From NCBI GenBank assembly GCA_029561345.1, contig JAKQJC010000043.1, positions 181,958-245,957 on the forward strand: DNA of 64,000 nucleotides, read 5' to 3'. Below, one piece after another: positions 23,930 through 32,258 of the stretch (position 1 is its first letter; the number at the start of each line of letters is the position of its first letter). The DNA is from Chloroflexota bacterium. Its GTDB lineage: Bacteria; Chloroflexota; Anaerolineae; Anaerolineales; Anaerolineaceae. The position numbers were made by a program, and so were the translations under genes. The notes under the pieces were generated by a model, which had not been told where the DNA came from, did no database searches, and saw only the letters and a program-made list of their open reading frames with translations.

Positions 23930-23974
23930 TCGCCTTCCCCGCTGCTTGTCGCAGCGGGGAAGGCGATTTTATTT
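23930..23974. terminator. bidirectional rho-independent terminator (15-bp stem), serving acnA on the minus strand and the remnant ORF on the plus strand
   Basis: UCGCCUUCCCCGCUG-cuugucg-CAGCGGGGAAGGCGA followed by UUUUAUUU on the plus strand. Confidence 0.7.
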
Positions 23975-26662
23975 GGACAGGCCGAGTAAAATGGTGGCCA
24001 TAATGCCGCCATCCTTGAAATACTGCGCCTCCATGTCTGTGTTAATGCGCATGGTGACGGCAAATTCCACTCGCATGCCATCAGCCCTGGTGGCGGTCAC
24101 CGCCACGCGTTTCCCAGGCTGCAGAGGGGTCAGGTTCTGCAGGGTGTACCTCTCAGTGCCGTCCAGTCCCAATGAGGCCGCGTTTTGACCGGGCAGAAAT
24201 TCCAGAGGCAGCACGCCCATGCCGGCCAGGTTGGCGCGGTGGATGCGCTCAAAAGATTCAGCCAGGATCGCTTTCACACCCAGCAGCAGCGGTCCCTTGG
24301 CCGCCCAATCGCGGGATGAGCCGGTGCCGTATTCCTTACCGGCAATCACCAGCAGGGGAACGCCTTCCATCTGGTATTTTTGCGCCGCTTCAAAAACGCT
24401 CATGTGCTCCCCATCCGGCAGATGGCAGGTAATGCCCCCCTCCACACCGGGCACCAGCAGGTTTTTCAAACGGATATTGGCGAAGGTGCCGCGGGCCATA
24501 ACCTGGTCGTTGCCACGCCGCGCGCCAAATGAATTGAAATTGGCCGCCTGCTCCCCATGCTCCAGCAGGTAGCGGCCGGCAGTCGAATCAACGGGAATAT
24601 CTCCAGCGGGAGAGATGTGGTCTGTGGTGACGGAATCGCCCAGCAGCAGCAGCACCCGCGCGTTTTCAATATCAGCCGGCACAGCAGATTTTCCTGGCGA
24701 TTCAAAGAATGGCGGCGCCTGCAAATAGGTGGAGGCGTCATTCCACGGGTAGATTTTTCCGCTGTCTGGTTGAATCTGATTCCAGGCGGGGCTGCCCTGA
24801 AGAACATTGGCATAGCCGGCAATGAATAATTCTGGCTGAATCAATTCATGCAGGAGGTGCTGGATTTCCGCGGCAGAAGGCCAGATATCCTTCAGAAAAA
24901 CGGCATTTCCAGCGCCATCCATCCCCAAAGGTTCGCGCTCAAGCTGGATGTTCATTGTCCCTGCCAGGGCATAGGCTACCACCAGGGGCGGCGAGGCCAG
25001 GTAGTTTATCTGGGTATATGGACTGACCCGGCCTTCAAAATTGCGGTTGCCTGAAAGGATGGCGGCGGCCAGAATTTTCTCTTTTTCCACCACATCCACC
25101 ACTGCCCGGGGCAGCGGGCCTGAGTTGCCAATGCAGGTGGCGCAGCCATAACCGGCAACATGAAAACCCAGCGTTTCCAAACTGGCCAGCAGCCCGCTGC
25201 GGGCAAGGTAATCGGAGACCACGCGCGAACCCGGCGTCAGACTGGTTTTGACATAAGCCGGCACACGCAGTCCGCGGCGCACGGCATTGCGTGCCAACAA
25301 ACCGGCGGCCAGCATGACCGTGGGGTTGGAGGTGTTGGTGCAAGAGGTGATGGCTGCTAATGCCAGGAATCCATGCCCAACCAGGCTGGTTTGTCCGTGG
25401 ATGTCCAGCCGGGCCGTACGGGTAAGATCAGCCGGGGCAAGACCGTATCCGCGCTCGTTTTTTGCCCTGGTCAGAGCTGCCCGGAGATTGCTTTGTGCAT
25501 GGCTGAGCGAGACCCGATCTTGCGGACGTTTGGGGCCGGCCAGGCTGGGCTCGATGGTTGAAAGATCCAGGGTCAACAGGTCGCTGAAAACCGGTTCTGG
25601 TGTTTCATCTGTACGGAAAAGATGCTGGGTGCGGTAATACCCTTCAACCAGAGCGATGTGGCTGGCCGGTTTGCCGGTCAGGCGCAGGTATTCCAGCGTC
25701 TGCCGGTCTACAGGAAAGTAGATCATGGTTGCCCCGCATTCGGGGGTCATGTTGGCGATCATGGCGCGGTCAGCCAGAGAGAGATGATCGAGACCGGGCC
25801 CGCAGACCTCCACAAACTTATCCACCACCCCCTTTTTACGCAATAATTCAATGATGGTCAGGGTCAGATCGGTGGGGGTGGCGCCTTCGGGGAGGGTCCC
25901 GCTCAATTTGAGGCCAATAACGTCTGGCGTCAGCATTTCCAACGGCTGACCCATCATGGCCGCCACGGCTTCAATCCCGCCGACGCCCCAGCCGGCCACT
26001 CCCAGACTGTTGATCATGGTGGTATGTGAATCCGTGCCGATCAGCGTTTCGGGAAACAGACAAACCTCCCCATTTTCCTCACGGCTGAGAAGGGCCCGGG
26101 CCAGGTATTCCAGGTTGACCTGATGGATGATGCCGGTGGCAGGAGGAACCACGCGAAAATTGGTAAAGGCCTGTTCGCACCAACGTAAAAATGCATAGCG
26201 TTCCTGGTTGCGCTGGAATTCCAATTCTGTGTTGCGCTTGAGAGCGCCGGGATGGCCGTATTCATTCACCATGATGGAGTGATCGATGACCAGGTCTACC
26301 CAAATGGCCGGGTTGACCGTCCCCGGATCGCCGCCGCGAGCCAGCAGGGCGCTGCGCATGGCCGCCAGGTCGTTCATCACGGGCACGCCGGTAAAATCCT
26401 GCAGCACCACCCGCCCTGGAAAAAAGGGAATCACCTGCCGGCTGGTTTCCTGCGGCTGCCAGGTGGCCAGGCGGCGGGCAATATCGCCGGCCTGCGCATC
26501 AGGCATGCTGCGCAGCACCCCTTCCAGCAGCACGCGAATGGAGAAAGGCAGCCTTTCCCAATAACGCTCAGGCAGACCGGGGATCTGATCCAGTTGATAC
26601 AGGGTGAAAATCTGACCATTTCTTTCAAACTTTCGTTTGGCGGTTTCCATTCCTTTTTGCAT
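23969..26662 (-). CDS. acnA: aconitate hydratase A
   Basis: About 900-aa aconitase with conserved Fe-S cluster ligand regions and a swivel domain. Start taken at MQKGMET with a GGAGG RBS. Confidence 0.92.
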   Translation of the reverse strand: MQKGMETAKRKFERNGQIFTLYQLDQIPGLPERYWERLPFSIRVLLEGVLRSMPDAQAGDIARRLATWQPQETSRQVIPFFPGRVVLQDFTGVPVMNDLAAMRSALLARGGDPGTVNPAIWVDLVIDHSIMVNEYGHPGALKRNTELEFQRNQERYAFLRWCEQAFTNFRVVPPATGIIHQVNLEYLARALLSREENGEVCLFPETLIGTDSHTTMINSLGVAGWGVGGIEAVAAMMGQPLEMLTPDVIGLKLSGTLPEGATPTDLTLTIIELLRKKGVVDKFVEVCGPGLDHLSLADRAMIANMTPECGATMIYFPVDRQTLEYLRLTGKPASHIALVEGYYRTQHLFRTDETPEPVFSDLLTLDLSTIEPSLAGPKRPQDRVSLSHAQSNLRAALTRAKNERGYGLAPADLTRTARLDIHGQTSLVGHGFLALAAITSCTNTSNPTVMLAAGLLARNAVRRGLRVPAYVKTSLTPGSRVVSDYLARSGLLASLETLGFHVAGYGCATCIGNSGPLPRAVVDVVEKEKILAAAILSGNRNFEGRVSPYTQINYLASPPLVVAYALAGTMNIQLEREPLGMDGAGNAVFLKDIWPSAAEIQHLLHELIQPELFIAGYANVLQGSPAWNQIQPDSGKIYPWNDASTYLQAPPFFESPGKSAVPADIENARVLLLLGDSVTTDHISPAGDIPVDSTAGRYLLEHGEQAANFNSFGARRGNDQVMARGTFANIRLKNLLVPGVEGGITCHLPDGEHMSVFEAAQKYQMEGVPLLVIAGKEYGTGSSRDWAAKGPLLLGVKAILAESFERIHRANLAGMGVLPLEFLPGQNAASLGLDGTERYTLQNLTPLQPGKRVAVTATRADGMRVEFAVTMRINTDMEAQYFKDGGIMATILLGLSK

Positions 26663-26678
26663 GATATTCCTCCGAAAA

Positions 26679-28001
26679 TTACGACATGGCCGCGCAAACG
26701 GCCTGCCCAAATTCGTGCGTGCCCAGCGGATGGGCGTCAGATCGGTCCAGAGCCAGGTCGGCCGTCACCCTGCCGGTTTTGATGACAGCAGCCAGGGCGT
26801 TGATCAAAATATCAGCGGCTTGCGTCCAGCCCATATAGCGCAGCATCATCTCGCCTGAAAGGATCAGAGAGGATGGGTTGGCCAGGTTTTTGCCGGCCAT
26901 GCCGGGCGCGGTGCCGTGGGTGGCTTCAAACACCGCCATCCCCGTGTTGTAGTTGATGTTGGCGCCTGGCGCAATGCCAATGCCGCCAATTTGGGCGGCC
27001 AGGGCATCGGAGAGATAATCGCCATTGAGGTTGGTGGTGGCAATGACGCTGAAGGCTTCGGGATTCAATAACACTTTTTGAAAAGCGGCATCGGTGATGA
27101 CATCATTAACAATGATTTTTCCGGCAGCGCGGGCTTCCTGTTCAGCCTGAGCAGCCGCTTCCTCGCCGGCAGACCGGCGCAGGGCTTCACTCTGGCGGCT
27201 GGTGAAGGCGCAATCAGAAAATTCGCGTTCCACCAGGTCATAACCCCAGCTGCGAAAAGCGCCCTCGGTGAATTTCATGATATTGCCTTTGTGCACCAGG
27301 GTTACGAAGGGTTTATGGTGTGCGACGGCATACTGCATGGCGGCGCGCACCAGACGTTCGCTGCCAGCCCGCGAGACTGGTTTTAAGCTCAGTCCCAGAT
27401 CATCCGTGAACCGCAGCCGGGCGGCCATTTGGGGAAAATGTGCTGAAAACAGCTCCAAAAACTGCGCGGACTCGGGTGAATTGGCGGCAAATTCGATGCC
27501 GGCATAAAGATCTTCCGTATTTTCGCGAAAGAGAGTGATATCCACTTTCTGAGGCTCGCGCACCGGCGCGATGATCCCTTCAAAATAACGCACCGGCCGC
27601 AGGCAGACATATAAATCAAGGTCTTTGCGCAGAGCCACATTCAATGAGCGAATGCCGCCGCCAACCGGAGTGGTGAGAGGGCCTTTGATGCCAATCCTAT
27701 AGGTTTTGAAGGCTTCGAGGGTGGTGGAGGGCAGCCATTCACCGCACTGGCTGAAGGCAGCCTCACCGGCCTGCACCTGAAGCCATTGAATGGCGCGTTC
27801 ACCGCCATAGGCCCGCGCCACGGCCTGGTCCATCACTGACCGGGCGGCCGCCCATATTTCAGGGCCAATGCCGTCGCCGGGGATATAAGGGATGAAAGGT
27901 CTGGCTGGGATGGACAGTCGCCCGTCCTGGGTCTGGATGATGGTGTGGGTGGGGTCAGATGGATTCATATTCACCTCATGTAGATCGGTCTTTTCTGGCA
28001 T
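26679..28001 (-). CDS. icd: isocitrate dehydrogenase (NADP-dependent, prokaryotic type)
   Basis: PYIPGDGIGPEIW, GPLTTPVGGGIRSLNVALR and NLNGDYLSDALAAQIGGIGIAPGANI motifs. The start may instead be the second Met, 33 nt downstream. Confidence 0.9.
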   Translation of the reverse strand: MPEKTDLHEVNMNPSDPTHTIIQTQDGRLSIPARPFIPYIPGDGIGPEIWAAARSVMDQAVARAYGGERAIQWLQVQAGEAAFSQCGEWLPSTTLEAFKTYRIGIKGPLTTPVGGGIRSLNVALRKDLDLYVCLRPVRYFEGIIAPVREPQKVDITLFRENTEDLYAGIEFAANSPESAQFLELFSAHFPQMAARLRFTDDLGLSLKPVSRAGSERLVRAAMQYAVAHHKPFVTLVHKGNIMKFTEGAFRSWGYDLVEREFSDCAFTSRQSEALRRSAGEEAAAQAEQEARAAGKIIVNDVITDAAFQKVLLNPEAFSVIATTNLNGDYLSDALAAQIGGIGIAPGANINYNTGMAVFEATHGTAPGMAGKNLANPSSLILSGEMMLRYMGWTQAADILINALAAVIKTGRVTADLALDRSDAHPLGTHEFGQAVCAAMS

Positions 28002-28019: not shown

Positions 28020-28048
28020 TTGACAGGGGCAGCAAAAGTCTCTATACT
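28020..28048 (+). promoter_or_regulatory. promoter of the IclR-family gene (TTGACA-17 nt-TATACT)
   Basis: Consensus -35 and a near-consensus -10, about 50 nt upstream of the ATG at 28098. Confidence 0.5.
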
Positions 28049-28097
28049 CTATTTATTATACCGTTTATCGGAACGCTGTACCACAGAGTGGAACAAA

Positions 28098-28901
28098 ATG
28101 CAGGCTGAAAAGATACAAACACTGGAAAGGGCAATCCAAATCCTCGACTGCTACACCATCGATCAATTTGAGATGGGTGTGCGCGAGGTGGCCCGGCTGA
28201 CCGGTCTTTCGGCCAGTGTTTGCAGCCGCCTGATGGCCGCCATGAAAGATGCGGGGCTGCTGACCCAAAACCCCACCACCCGGGCTTATGCCATGGGGCC
28301 GCGGGCCTTGCGGTGGGCTGAAATCTACTCGGCCAACCTCGATATCCGGAATGTGGCCCTGCCGGTGATTAACGAGCTGCTGCTTGAAACGCAGGAAACC
28401 ATTTCCCTTTATATTCTGGATAACGATGAGCGGTTATGTGTGGAGCGCATGGAAAGCGCACAAAATGTCCGCATTGTTGCGCGGATTGGGCGGCGTCTGC
28501 CGCTTTATGCTGGCTCAGGAGGAAAAGTCCTGCTGGCTTACCTGCCTCAGCACCGCCAGGAAGAAATCATTCGCAAAACCGATTTCAAGCCTTTCACCTC
28601 CAGCACCATCATCGATCCTGAACAACTGCGCAAAGAATTGCGCCAGATTCGCATGCAGGGTTATGCCTTCAGCAATGGCGAATGGGTGGCAGATGCCGCC
28701 GGCGTGGCCGCCCCCATTTTCGACCACAAGGGTGATGTTATTGCTGCCCTGACCATTTCAGGTCCTGGCACCCGTTTTACCCCTGAAATCATCCGTCGTC
28801 ATGTTGCCGCCATTCTGCAGGCTGTCGAACGCATTTCCCGCGATTTAGGTTACATCGGTAACGCCTACAACCAGCCTCAGCAGAATAACCCTCGTTACTG
28901 A
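28098..28901 (+). CDS. IclR-family transcriptional regulator
   Basis: N-terminal wHTH (LERAIQILDCY...VREVARLTGLSASVCSRLM) and a C-terminal IclR effector domain. Confidence 0.88.
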   Translation: MQAEKIQTLERAIQILDCYTIDQFEMGVREVARLTGLSASVCSRLMAAMKDAGLLTQNPTTRAYAMGPRALRWAEIYSANLDIRNVALPVINELLLETQETISLYILDNDERLCVERMESAQNVRIVARIGRRLPLYAGSGGKVLLAYLPQHRQEEIIRKTDFKPFTSSTIIDPEQLRKELRQIRMQGYAFSNGEWVADAAGVAAPIFDHKGDVIAALTISGPGTRFTPEIIRRHVAAILQAVERISRDLGYIGNAYNQPQQNNPRY

Positions 28902-29003
28902 ACGGGGTTGGGTGCTATTCCAGGTATCCAGGCCCCATTCCAGTAATGGGGCTTTTTCTTTTTTCAGGCCATTGTCATCCTTTGGTAAGGAGGAACACAG
29001 ATT

Positions 29004-30314
29004 ATGTTTATAGCGGATTGTATCGAAGCCCAACTGCCCGGCTGGCGGGACCGGGTGCAGCATCTGCGTGGAAAAAGCGGTGATTTCAAGGTTTGCGATG
29101 TCACCGTTTCCCAAATTTACAGCGGTATTCGCGGCGTTCAGATCCAGGTGAGTGATATTTCTTATGTGGATCCTTATGAAGGACTGCGTTTACGCGGCTA
29201 CACCATTCCAGAATTGCTTGATTTATTGCCCAAAGCGGCGGGTTCGCCAATGCCCCTGGCAGGCGGCCTTTATTATCTGCTGTTGTGCGACGCCCTGCCC
29301 ACCCGGCAACAGGCTGAAATGGTGGAAGAGGAATGGCGCCAGCGCAGCGAAATTCCAGCATATGTTTGCAATGTCATTCGCAGAATGCCGGCTGGCACGC
29401 ATCCAATGACCCTTTTTTCGATGGGCATCATGGCCTTGCAACGCGAATCTGTTTTTGCCAAAAAATATGACAACGGCACAGCCCGGGAAGATCATTGGCG
29501 TTATTATCTGGAAGATGCGCTGAATCTGACGGCCAAACTGCCCGGCCTGGCGGCGTTTATTTACAACCTGCGTTATCAGGACGGCATCACCATCCCGCCG
29601 GATCCTGACCTGGATTGGAGCGCCAATTTTGCCCATATGATTGACCGTTCGGGCAATCCGGATTATCACGATTTATGCCGTCTTTTTTTCTTTCTGCATT
29701 CTGATCACGAAGGCGGGAATGTCAGCGCACATGCCACTCATCTGATCAGCTCGGCGCTTTCAGATGTCTATCTTTCGTGCGCGGGGGGCATGAACGGTTT
29801 GGCAGGGCCGCTGCATGGCCTGGCCAACCAGGAATGTTTGAAATGGTTACTTGATGTACAGACATATTTTGGTAAAATACCTTCTCAGGAAGATTTACGT
29901 CAATACTTAATAGACCAGCTGCGGCACGGCGCGCTTATTCCCGGGTATGGACATGCTGTTTTGCGCACCACCGACCCGCGCTTTACCGCGCAGCTGGCGT
30001 TTGCCCGGAAATACATGCCGTCAGATGAACTGCTGCAGCTGGTGGATCTGGTATACCAGACCCTGCCAGATGTGCTCCAGGCTCAGGGCAAGGTCAGCAA
30101 TCCGTGGCCGAATGTAGATGCCATCAACGGCGCTCTGCAGTATCATTTTGGCGTGAAGGAGTTTGATTTCTACACTGTGTTGTTTGGCGTCAGCCGCATT
30201 ATGGGCCTGACTGCGCATATTGTATGGGCGCGCGCCTTGCTGAAGCCGATTGAACGGCCAAAATCGCTGACCACGGAAATGCTGGAAACGATGATCCGTA
30301 ACAGCGGTCATTAA
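29004..30314 (+). CDS. gltA: citrate synthase
   Basis: HSDHEGGNVSAH and GYGHAVLRTTDPR catalytic motifs. Confidence 0.92.
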   Translation: MFIADCIEAQLPGWRDRVQHLRGKSGDFKVCDVTVSQIYSGIRGVQIQVSDISYVDPYEGLRLRGYTIPELLDLLPKAAGSPMPLAGGLYYLLLCDALPTRQQAEMVEEEWRQRSEIPAYVCNVIRRMPAGTHPMTLFSMGIMALQRESVFAKKYDNGTAREDHWRYYLEDALNLTAKLPGLAAFIYNLRYQDGITIPPDPDLDWSANFAHMIDRSGNPDYHDLCRLFFFLHSDHEGGNVSAHATHLISSALSDVYLSCAGGMNGLAGPLHGLANQECLKWLLDVQTYFGKIPSQEDLRQYLIDQLRHGALIPGYGHAVLRTTDPRFTAQLAFARKYMPSDELLQLVDLVYQTLPDVLQAQGKVSNPWPNVDAINGALQYHFGVKEFDFYTVLFGVSRIMGLTAHIVWARALLKPIERPKSLTTEMLETMIRNSGH

Positions 30315-30419
30315 AGGCGGCATGATAACCATTGGGCTTTCACCTGAAAATTTCCCCAATTAATACAGGAAGGCACCCGGTTTTCCTGGCGCAATCATCT
30401 TGGAAGGAGTTTTTATTCA

Positions 30420-32197
30420 TGGATAATGGCACTTATCATATTTTTGGCGATAAACTGGTGCTGCGGATACGCAACAACCGGGTTTGCGATACTGTTGAAG
30501 AATTGATCAACAGCAGCCTGTTTTTGGACATCTTATCCAAATATGTGCGGCACCTTGCCCGGCAGCAATCCCGGCTGCTGCGCGTCTTTAAGAACGAAGA
30601 CCATGTGACGCCAGATGAACTGAAAACCATGCAGCAAACCCTGGTGCTGTTGACCAAGCTGCCCTTCGCGCAGGCGAAACGGGTGATCTCTGACAGCGAG
30701 ACCTTTTTTGAAGATGTGGAATTGTTCAGCGATTTTGTTGAACAGTTCTACAATTTCTGGCGGCGCCTGCACCGCCTGGTGGTCTGCGATTCCATTGGCG
30801 ACCGTCTGGATAAGCGTCCTTACCGCACGTTCAACGAGACGGTTGAGAAATTGATGCACGTGGTGCGCAGCGCACAGCGCGACATTCAAGAAAACCTCAC
30901 TGGCGCTCACCCGCGGGTTTACCGCCAGGTGAGCGCAGGCGCCGAAGTGGCCGCCATCACCCTGCCGCGCAAAATTGCCTACCCGAGCAGCGTTTATGAT
31001 CGGTTGAATGAAATTCTGGTCACCCGCCAGGTGTTGATTTATCCGCCGATGATCTTTAACACCCCCACCAATAAACGCAGCGGGCAGTTTGAGCGCGTGA
31101 ATGAAAACCCGCTGGAAAAACTGAACATCCAGCCGGATGAATGGCTGTGTTACCCGGCAAAGGTGGGGCCGTTGGTGATCATGGTGTATTTCACCATGCG
31201 CTATTTTGAACTGGGCTTTGCCCTGAGCAACCTGTTTGAACTGGCCGATGACGAAGACCTGAAGCGCAAACCGGATGCAGTATATCTTTTTGGCACGCCT
31301 GTGGAAGGCGAACATGCTCCGGGGGTGAATGAAACCATCTTCTTTGATGATGAGGAAAATGATATTCTGGTGGCCACCATTCCATACCGCAAGGAATATG
31401 GCTATTTTGGCTACCTTAAGAAAATGATTCTCACCCTGCACAATATCAAAATGATGAAAATGGGCCGTCTGCCCTTTCACGGCGCCATGTTCCACATTGT
31501 GCTGCGCAAAACCGGCCCGGTGAATGTGCTCCTGATCGGCGACAGCGGAGCGGGAAAATCGGAAACCCTCGAAGCGCTGCGCGGCATCATTGAAGAACAG
31601 GTGGAAGACCTGGTGATTGTGGCGGATGACATGGGGTCGGTGGATATTTTGCCAGATGGCCGGGTGGCTGGCTGCGGTACAGAGATCGGTGCCTTTGTGC
31701 GCCTGGATGATCTGCAGAAGGGCTATGCCCTGGGCCAGATCGACCGCACCATCATCATGAATGCCGACCAGGTGAACGCCCGGGTGGTCATTCCGGTGAC
31801 CAAGTTTCAGGATGTGATCCGCGGTTACGATGTGGATTTTGTGCTCTATGCTAACAACTATGATACCGTGGATGAAGCGCACCCGGTGATTGAACGCTTC
31901 CAGAGTCCCGAAGACGCCCTGCAGGTGTTTCGCGCCGGCGCCGTGATGAGCAAAGGCACCACCACCACCACCGGCCTGACCCACTCTTATTTTGCCAATA
32001 TTTTTGGTCCGCCCCAATACCAGGACCTGCATGAGCAAATTGCCCGGCGCTTCTTCAAAACCTTTTTTGAAAAAGGCATTTATGTGGGCGAACTGCGCAC
32101 CCAGCTTGGGGTGACCGGCATGGAAATGAGCGGGCCGGAGGTTTCAGCGCGCGCTCTGCTGGATATGTTGATGACGAGGAAAAAAAGCGGCGATTAA
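30420..32197 (+). CDS. HPr kinase/phosphorylase-like P-loop kinase domain fused to a large N-terminal domain of unknown function
   Basis: C-terminal region HGAMFHIVLRKTGPVNVLLIGDSGAGKSETLEAL...LVIVADD closely resembles the HprK catalytic core (GDSGxGKSE P-loop plus the ADD motif). The about 400-aa N-terminal part has no recognised domain. AAGGAG RBS. Confidence 0.7.
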
Positions 32198-32231: not shown

Positions 32232-32258
32232 CACGAGGCAGGTGCACCCTGCCTCGTG
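32232..32258. terminator. bidirectional terminator (11-bp stem CACGAGGCAGG/CCUGCCUCGUG)
   Basis: It lies between the convergent HprK-like gene and the hybrid histidine kinase gene. On the minus strand it is followed by AAUUUUUUAAC. Confidence 0.65.

Follow-up and report, generated by a model that had tools for sequence, protein, structure and literature searches.

A PEP carboxykinase-fold protein with a globin-like helical insert, encoded beside citrate synthase in an Anaerolineaceae genome, belongs to a large undescribed family of probable small-molecule phosphotransferases

The gene downstream of citrate synthase (gltA) in an Anaerolineaceae genome encodes a protein with a two-domain body like that of PEP carboxykinase (PEPCK). 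In sequence alignments its residues Y329, K334/K335, H354, K380/S381 and N453/R455 are conserved counterparts of PEPCK catalytic residues. Most probably the protein is a PEPCK-type small-molecule phosphotransferase of the PEP/oxaloacetate node. It is unlikely to be a protein serine kinase, and a connection with central carbon metabolism is plausible. On balance, we lean towards a complete single-unit PEPCK-fold enzyme that would carry out oxaloacetate/PEP (de)carboxylation-coupled phosphoryl transfer or a close variant of it. Together with this explanation, and with the same slight preference, the family is placed as a large, unnamed sister to ATP-PEPCK, GTP-PEPCK, PPi-PEPCK and HprK/P.

The window, i.e. 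the whole 64-kb stretch of DNA that was analysed, carries the target as a single long open reading frame on the plus strand (Table 1). The initial annotation had begun it at 30420; the frame and its stop at 32197 were borne out, and the favoured start is the ATG at 30419. The target is a real gene: an identical protein has been recorded for an Anaerolineaceae MAG, and homologues number more than 7,000.

Table 1. Coordinates of the target, its sequence features and the neighbouring genes in the window.
Feature	Position	Strand	Evidence or remark
acnA	23969-26710	-	divergent from iclR-gltA-target
NADP-icd	26679-28001	-	divergent from iclR-gltA-target
IclR-family regulator	28020..28901	+	Pfam HTH_IclR and IclR_C; below every NCBIfam equivalog cutoff
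Terminator-like hairpin between iclR and gltA	28930..28954	+	10-bp stem, TTTCTTTTTT T-run tail
Citrate (Si)-synthase (gltA), eukaryote-like type	29004..30314	+	Pfam Citrate_synt 2.1e-88; NCBIfam PRK09569 572 bits vs cutoff 344
Shine-Dalgarno-like GGAAGGAG	30402..30409	+	9 nt 5' of the target ATG; sequence read directly
Target CDS	30419..32197	+	592 aa; PEPCK-fold member of undescribed family
All-helical, family-specific insert (aa 24-165)	30488..30913	+	remote globin-like fold, non-haem
Beta-rich region, part of PEPCK N-terminal domain (aa 177-328)	30947..31402	+	hhalign and hmmsearch alignments
YFGYLKK (aa 329-335), matching PckA Y207-GGEM-K212-K213	31403..31423	+	BLASTP local alignment, hhalign, hmmsearch
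H354 in LPFHG, matching PckA metal ligand H232	31478..31480	+	hmmsearch alignments of 3 members; 47/55
GDSGAGKSE (aa 374-382; K380, S381), Walker A/kinase-1a P-loop	31538..31564	+	aligned with PckA GLSGTGKTT
ADDMG (aa 402-406), acidic pair after beta-strand (kinase-2)	31622..31636	+	D403 50/55, D404 51/55
GTEIGAFVR (aa 420-428), conserved loop/strand	31676..31702	+	G420 55/55, E422 53/55, G424 55/55, R428 49/55
NARVVIP (aa 453-459), matching PckA N331-T-R333-VSYP, substrate/phosphate Arg	31775..31795	+	BLASTP fragment, hhalign, hmmsearch
Flexible Thr/Gly-rich loop GAVMSKGTTTTTGLTHSYFANIFGP (aa 507-531), matching PckA AKLAGTERGITEP..FSACFG	31937..32011	+	hhalign; pLDDT <50 at aa 510-521
GC-rich palindromic hairpin, target/convergent histidine-kinase gene	32232..32258	.	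T-run on minus strand only

HprK and the PEP carboxykinases form one fold family (Cheek et al. 2005, PMC1079889). In structure searches with the target, PEPCKs were the best matches, over 338-480 aligned residues or columns, and HprK matched over only ~128-146, ranking below three PEPCK classes. The TM-scores were modest (0.35-0.51), and the target model is of low confidence at aa 427-459 and 510-521. Of the initial annotation, the HprK-like core stands in part: its P-loop/ADD segment and HprK/P are related, with the PEPCKs as the better structural matches. Alignment of the family profile with PckA by hhalign gave an E-value of 1e-4 over 241 columns and paired target residues 264-531 with residues 143-411 of E. 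coli Pck. Its probability remained at only 57-61% because the PckA template stayed shallow; the sequences added to the template were all Enterobacterales PckAs of 86-92% identity, with almost no extra diversity. When the family was searched with a PckA HMM, numerous members matched, all in the same register. In a Pfam comparison of 55 diverse members, sub-threshold matches were to PEPCK_ATP in 34 and to Hpr_kinase_C in 9, and one member (P0151) exceeds the PEPCK_ATP gathering score (27.1 bits vs 26.5). The target itself has no Pfam family above threshold and no match to PEPCK_ATP (PF01293) at E<=0.1, and it matches NCBIfam PRK09344 (PEPCK) weakly at aa 329-434 (19 bits vs a cutoff of 369). PDB sequence searches, by phmmer with the target and by hmmsearch with the family profile, returned only P-loop noise, with T. 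thermophilus PEPCK no better than E 2.9 and no HprK chain at E<=10.

The protein had been described as an HprK domain fused to an unrecognised N-terminal domain of 400 aa. It is not such a fusion, since full-length relatives of 540-600 aa persist to about 26% identity; residues ~260-330 match the N-terminal domain of PckA in profile alignments, and only aa ~24-165 are family-specific.

The residues mapped onto the PEPCK active site are kept in family members with as little as 22-30% identity (55 diverse members). At YFGYLKK, Y329 is conserved in 52 of the 55, K334 in 54 and K335 in 46; the PckA residues at these positions (E. coli numbering) are the substrate/CO2 Tyr (Y207) and the metal Lys (K212/K213). 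As the counterpart of H232, hhalign chose H359, which is unconserved, unlike H354. The P-loop was aligned with that of PckA by BLASTP, hhalign and hmmsearch alike; G374 is invariant, K380 (53/55) and S381 (49/55) correspond to PckA K254/T255, and the P-loop residues are intact in the target. GDSGAGKSE and the ADD (aa 402-404) were correctly reported in the initial annotation, which misplaced them in the last 170 aa; their actual distance from the C-terminus is 190-220 residues. Because automatic aligners shift register around the acidic pair, the proposal that D403/D404 correspond to D268/D269 in PckA and to the ADD in HprK comes from motif and secondary-structure matching. Similarly, GTEIGAFVR is proposed by inspection to correspond to FEGGCYAK (K288) of PckA and to the EIRG(L)G motif of HprK. 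In NARVVIP, N453 (50/55), R455 (49/55) and P459 (52/55) are conserved. Towards the C-terminus, hhalign pairs SKGTTTTTGL..FANIFG of the target with the PckA segment, which we take to be the mobile active-site lid of PEPCK, at only moderate confidence and in a loop of low pLDDT. In the N-terminal domain NLFEL...KPD (aa 271-286) was aligned with NMFIRP...KPD of PckA, N271 being kept in 54/55 members. R220 in NKRSG (aa 218-222), kept in 47/55, is a possible candidate for the equivalent of PckA R65, an essential residue in oxaloacetate/CO2 binding; hhalign gives no confident alignment there, the confidence of greedy local alignment with PckA being near zero upstream of about aa 250.

The helical insert carries the conserved residues Y111, W114, R115, R119, Y153 and R154, and R169 lies just past it. 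In aa 1-200 the best-kept His is shared by at most 8 of the 55 members, and because of this the insert is regarded as non-haem; a haem-globin reading was dropped for want of a conserved proximal His. Most simply, the invariant Arg/Tyr/Trp cluster would be an extra anion site, serving either as an allosteric effector site or as an extension of the substrate pocket.

The family comprises more than 7,000 full-length cluster representatives (90% identity) from many anaerobic phyla; among the carriers are Anaerolineae, Bacteroidales, Omnitrophota, relatives of Syntrophorhabdus/Syntrophus and Spirochaetes, besides further uncultured anaerobes. It is covered by no Pfam or NCBIfam model, the literature searches gave no description of the family, and no characterised homologue was found. 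The present labels of its proteins vary from 'hypothetical' to 'EcfA2', 'SAR1 GTPase' or, without justification, 'PEP carboxykinase'. Identity stays at or above 50% between anaerobes of more than 12 phyla, and together with the absence of a conserved partner gene this fits a core enzyme better than a regulator. One protein of 2,146 aa (P0254), combining a PEPCK-like core with an aminotransferase segment, was discarded as Rosetta-stone evidence, the segment being ~50-110 aa and far below every cut-off. This segment could not be called as aspartate aminotransferase, and an error of gene calling may have produced so large an ORF.

The gltA, iclR and acnA-icd neighbourhood was found as described in the initial annotation, and so was the lack of HPr/PTS context: a six-frame translation of the 64-kb window holds no HPr His15/Ser46 signature, and no PTS gene or domain occurs among its larger ORFs. 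The IclR-family gene probably has its true start downstream of 28020. No terminator-like hairpin lies in the 104-nt gap between gltA and the target (30315-30418), and judging from the sequence, these two genes on the same strand are probably co-transcribed. The pair is kept at three loci (L001, L002, L011) and in O. apprima (L083; orthologue ADN00_09405), where the gap is 55 nt. Conservation of this arrangement next to TCA genes elsewhere is largely wanting; adjacency to TCA genes or citrate synthase was seen at 3 of 63 species-level loci, all from close Anaerolineales (Anaerolineaceae), and in Ornatilinea. In two Omnitrophota genomes (L058, L061) a canonical pckA lies two genes upstream of the family gene, in the order pckA, a CxxCxxCC protein and the target homologue, preceded in one case by NAD-glutamate dehydrogenase. 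No family-wide conserved neighbour that would name a pathway was found among the loci examined. Neighbours met across them include amino-acid ABC transporters, proBA, argGH, GH57 and holA, and also a 2-oxoacid dehydrogenase E1, MerR, Der and RelA/SpoT.

In the mechanism proposed for the enzyme, the P-loop would hold the phosphoryl donor with Mg2+, and the Lys/His/Asp triad would bind another divalent metal ion, by which a 2-oxo- or enol-carboxylate is polarised. This carboxylate would be positioned by Tyr329, Arg455 and probably Arg220, and phosphoryl transfer to or from the enolate would be coupled to (de)carboxylation. The predicted reaction is oxaloacetate + NTP (or PPi) <-> PEP + CO2 + NDP (or Pi), or a very close variant. 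Since the target is probably co-transcribed with gltA, in the source Anaerolineaceae genome it would set the oxaloacetate supply for, or the drain from, the gltA-acnA-icd branch. A bolder proposal, which we put forward only tentatively, is that the family forms a fourth PEP carboxykinase class beside the ATP, GTP and PPi classes, an unannotated anaplerotic/gluconeogenic enzyme with a compact core regulated or completed by the non-haem globin-like domain. With its PEPCK-like body and HprK-like P-loop, the family may also mark an evolutionary bridge between PEPCK and HprK/P.

The oxaloacetate/PEP assignment has to be weighed against a PEPCK-fold small-molecule kinase or decarboxylase acting on some other substrate, which we consider a lesser possibility. 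Here the cleft would be covered by the insert (R119/R154/R169), giving a pocket roomy enough for a larger or more highly charged anion; examples are a different 2-oxo or hydroxy di-/tricarboxylate and a phosphorylated acid. A different enol- or acyl-phosphate would then be made or used. Consistent with this, all 55 diverse members possess the insert with its Arg/Tyr/Trp cluster, both as well conserved as the catalytic residues, the R65 equivalent is not securely placed, and the family falls under the PEPCK_ATP and NCBIfam PEPCK cut-offs. The canonical pckA beside the family gene in Omnitrophota makes plain functional redundancy less likely and would allow for another substrate or donor. However, all alignable PEPCK residues that contact oxaloacetate/PEP, CO2 and Mn2+ have conserved counterparts, and no conserved neighbour points to an alternative substrate.

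The initial annotation had suggested a serine kinase that regulates central carbon metabolism. This would be an HprK/P-like protein serine kinase/phosphorylase with an N-terminal sensor, acting on citrate synthase, IDH or an HPr-like protein as an IclR-linked functional analogue of AceK. We regard it as improbable. The HprK matches are confined to 128-146 aa and stand below those of three PEPCK classes, no Hpr_kinase_N is present, Hpr_kinase_C is well under its threshold, and HprK chains were undetectable in the PDB by sequence even with the family profile. Residues specific to PEPCK and lying beyond the HprK core are kept. The sparse TCA adjacency, the window devoid of HPr motif and PTS gene and the missing AceK Pfam match also speak against it, as does identity of at least 50% across phyla, which is unusual for a regulator. 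A PEPCK-fold pseudo-enzyme, that is a non-catalytic or regulatory NTP-binding metabolite sensor or scaffold, has a precedent in the PEPCK-fold accessory subunit of Euglena complex I. Loss of catalytic residues is usual in pseudo-enzymes; the P-loop Lys/Ser, metal triad, Tyr and Arg of this family are kept in 46-54 of the 55 diverse members, and its proteins are stand-alone, cytoplasmic and without a conserved partner, so we hold this explanation to be very improbable.

The PEP-pyruvate-oxaloacetate node governs the share of carbon that anaerobes put into fermentation products, amino-acid synthesis and gluconeogenesis. Should the family prove to be a new class of PEPCK, or a related enzyme that forms an enol-phosphate, a central reaction is missing or mis-assigned in many reconstructions of MAGs from digesters, sediments and the gut. 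It would also represent a new regulatory design, a PEPCK core joined to a globin-fold module, and would inform the origin of HprK/P from a metabolic enzyme. If the substrate is new, the family defines a new reaction in a well-studied fold. More than 7,000 sequence clusters (90% identity) in at least a dozen phyla stand without a Pfam or NCBIfam model.

Among known systems, ATP-PEPCK (PckA, PF01293; E. coli b3403, PDB 1AQ2/1II2) shares about 16% identity with the target. The target adds the 140-aa globin-like insert and lacks roughly residues 1-50, 76-143 and 463-540 of PckA. Its P-loop reads GDSGAGKSE instead of GLSGTGKTT, the helix from the P-loop to the DD is longer, and the R65 motif GRSPKDK of PckA is unrecognisable (possibly NKRSG); in some genomes the family coexists with true pckA. 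GTP-PEPCK (PF00821/PF17297) and PPi-PEPCK (P. freudenreichii 8E1U), the latter about twice the size of the target, show no detectable sequence similarity to it. For the insert, the nearest known systems are non-haem globin-fold sensor domains (RsbR N-domain 2BNL/7B0U, globin-coupled sensors, PA3967 and pXO2-61). DUF4914 (PF16260), found mainly in Bacteroides and with no published function found in the literature, gives weak matches in 21/55 family members (best 5.6e-5), centred on the His/P-loop region and all below cutoff, the best member reaching 21.9 bits vs 25.7. The matched stretch lies ~106 residues earlier in the DUF4914 profile (221-269 vs protein 327-375), and the target itself has no match at E<=0.1.

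HprK/P (PF07475 + PF02603) corresponds to the target over ~130-146 aa. Common to both are the Walker A GxSGxGKS(E) and an ADD at the end of the next strand (49-55/55 members), and the P-loop with the next helix (GDSGAGKSETLEAL) is closer in sequence to HprK than to PckA. The match to Hpr_kinase_C (PF07475) reaches 13.6 bits vs a gathering score of 33.3 and spans profile positions 9-56 of 171. In place of the MurE/F-like Hpr_kinase_N, for which no Pfam match was obtained, the N-terminal part holds the globin-like insert and PEPCK N-domain elements. The target has the PEPCK N-domain, YxGxxKK, NxR and flexible-loop elements, none of which is known from the HprK structure. AceK, the IclR-linked isocitrate dehydrogenase kinase/phosphatase of ~580 aa, resembles the target in size, and the target likewise lies near icd and an IclR-family gene. 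Homology to AceK was rejected, no Pfam match to its kinase or regulatory domain being obtained at E<=0.1. The fold of AceK is protein-kinase-like, unlike the PEPCK-like fold of the target.

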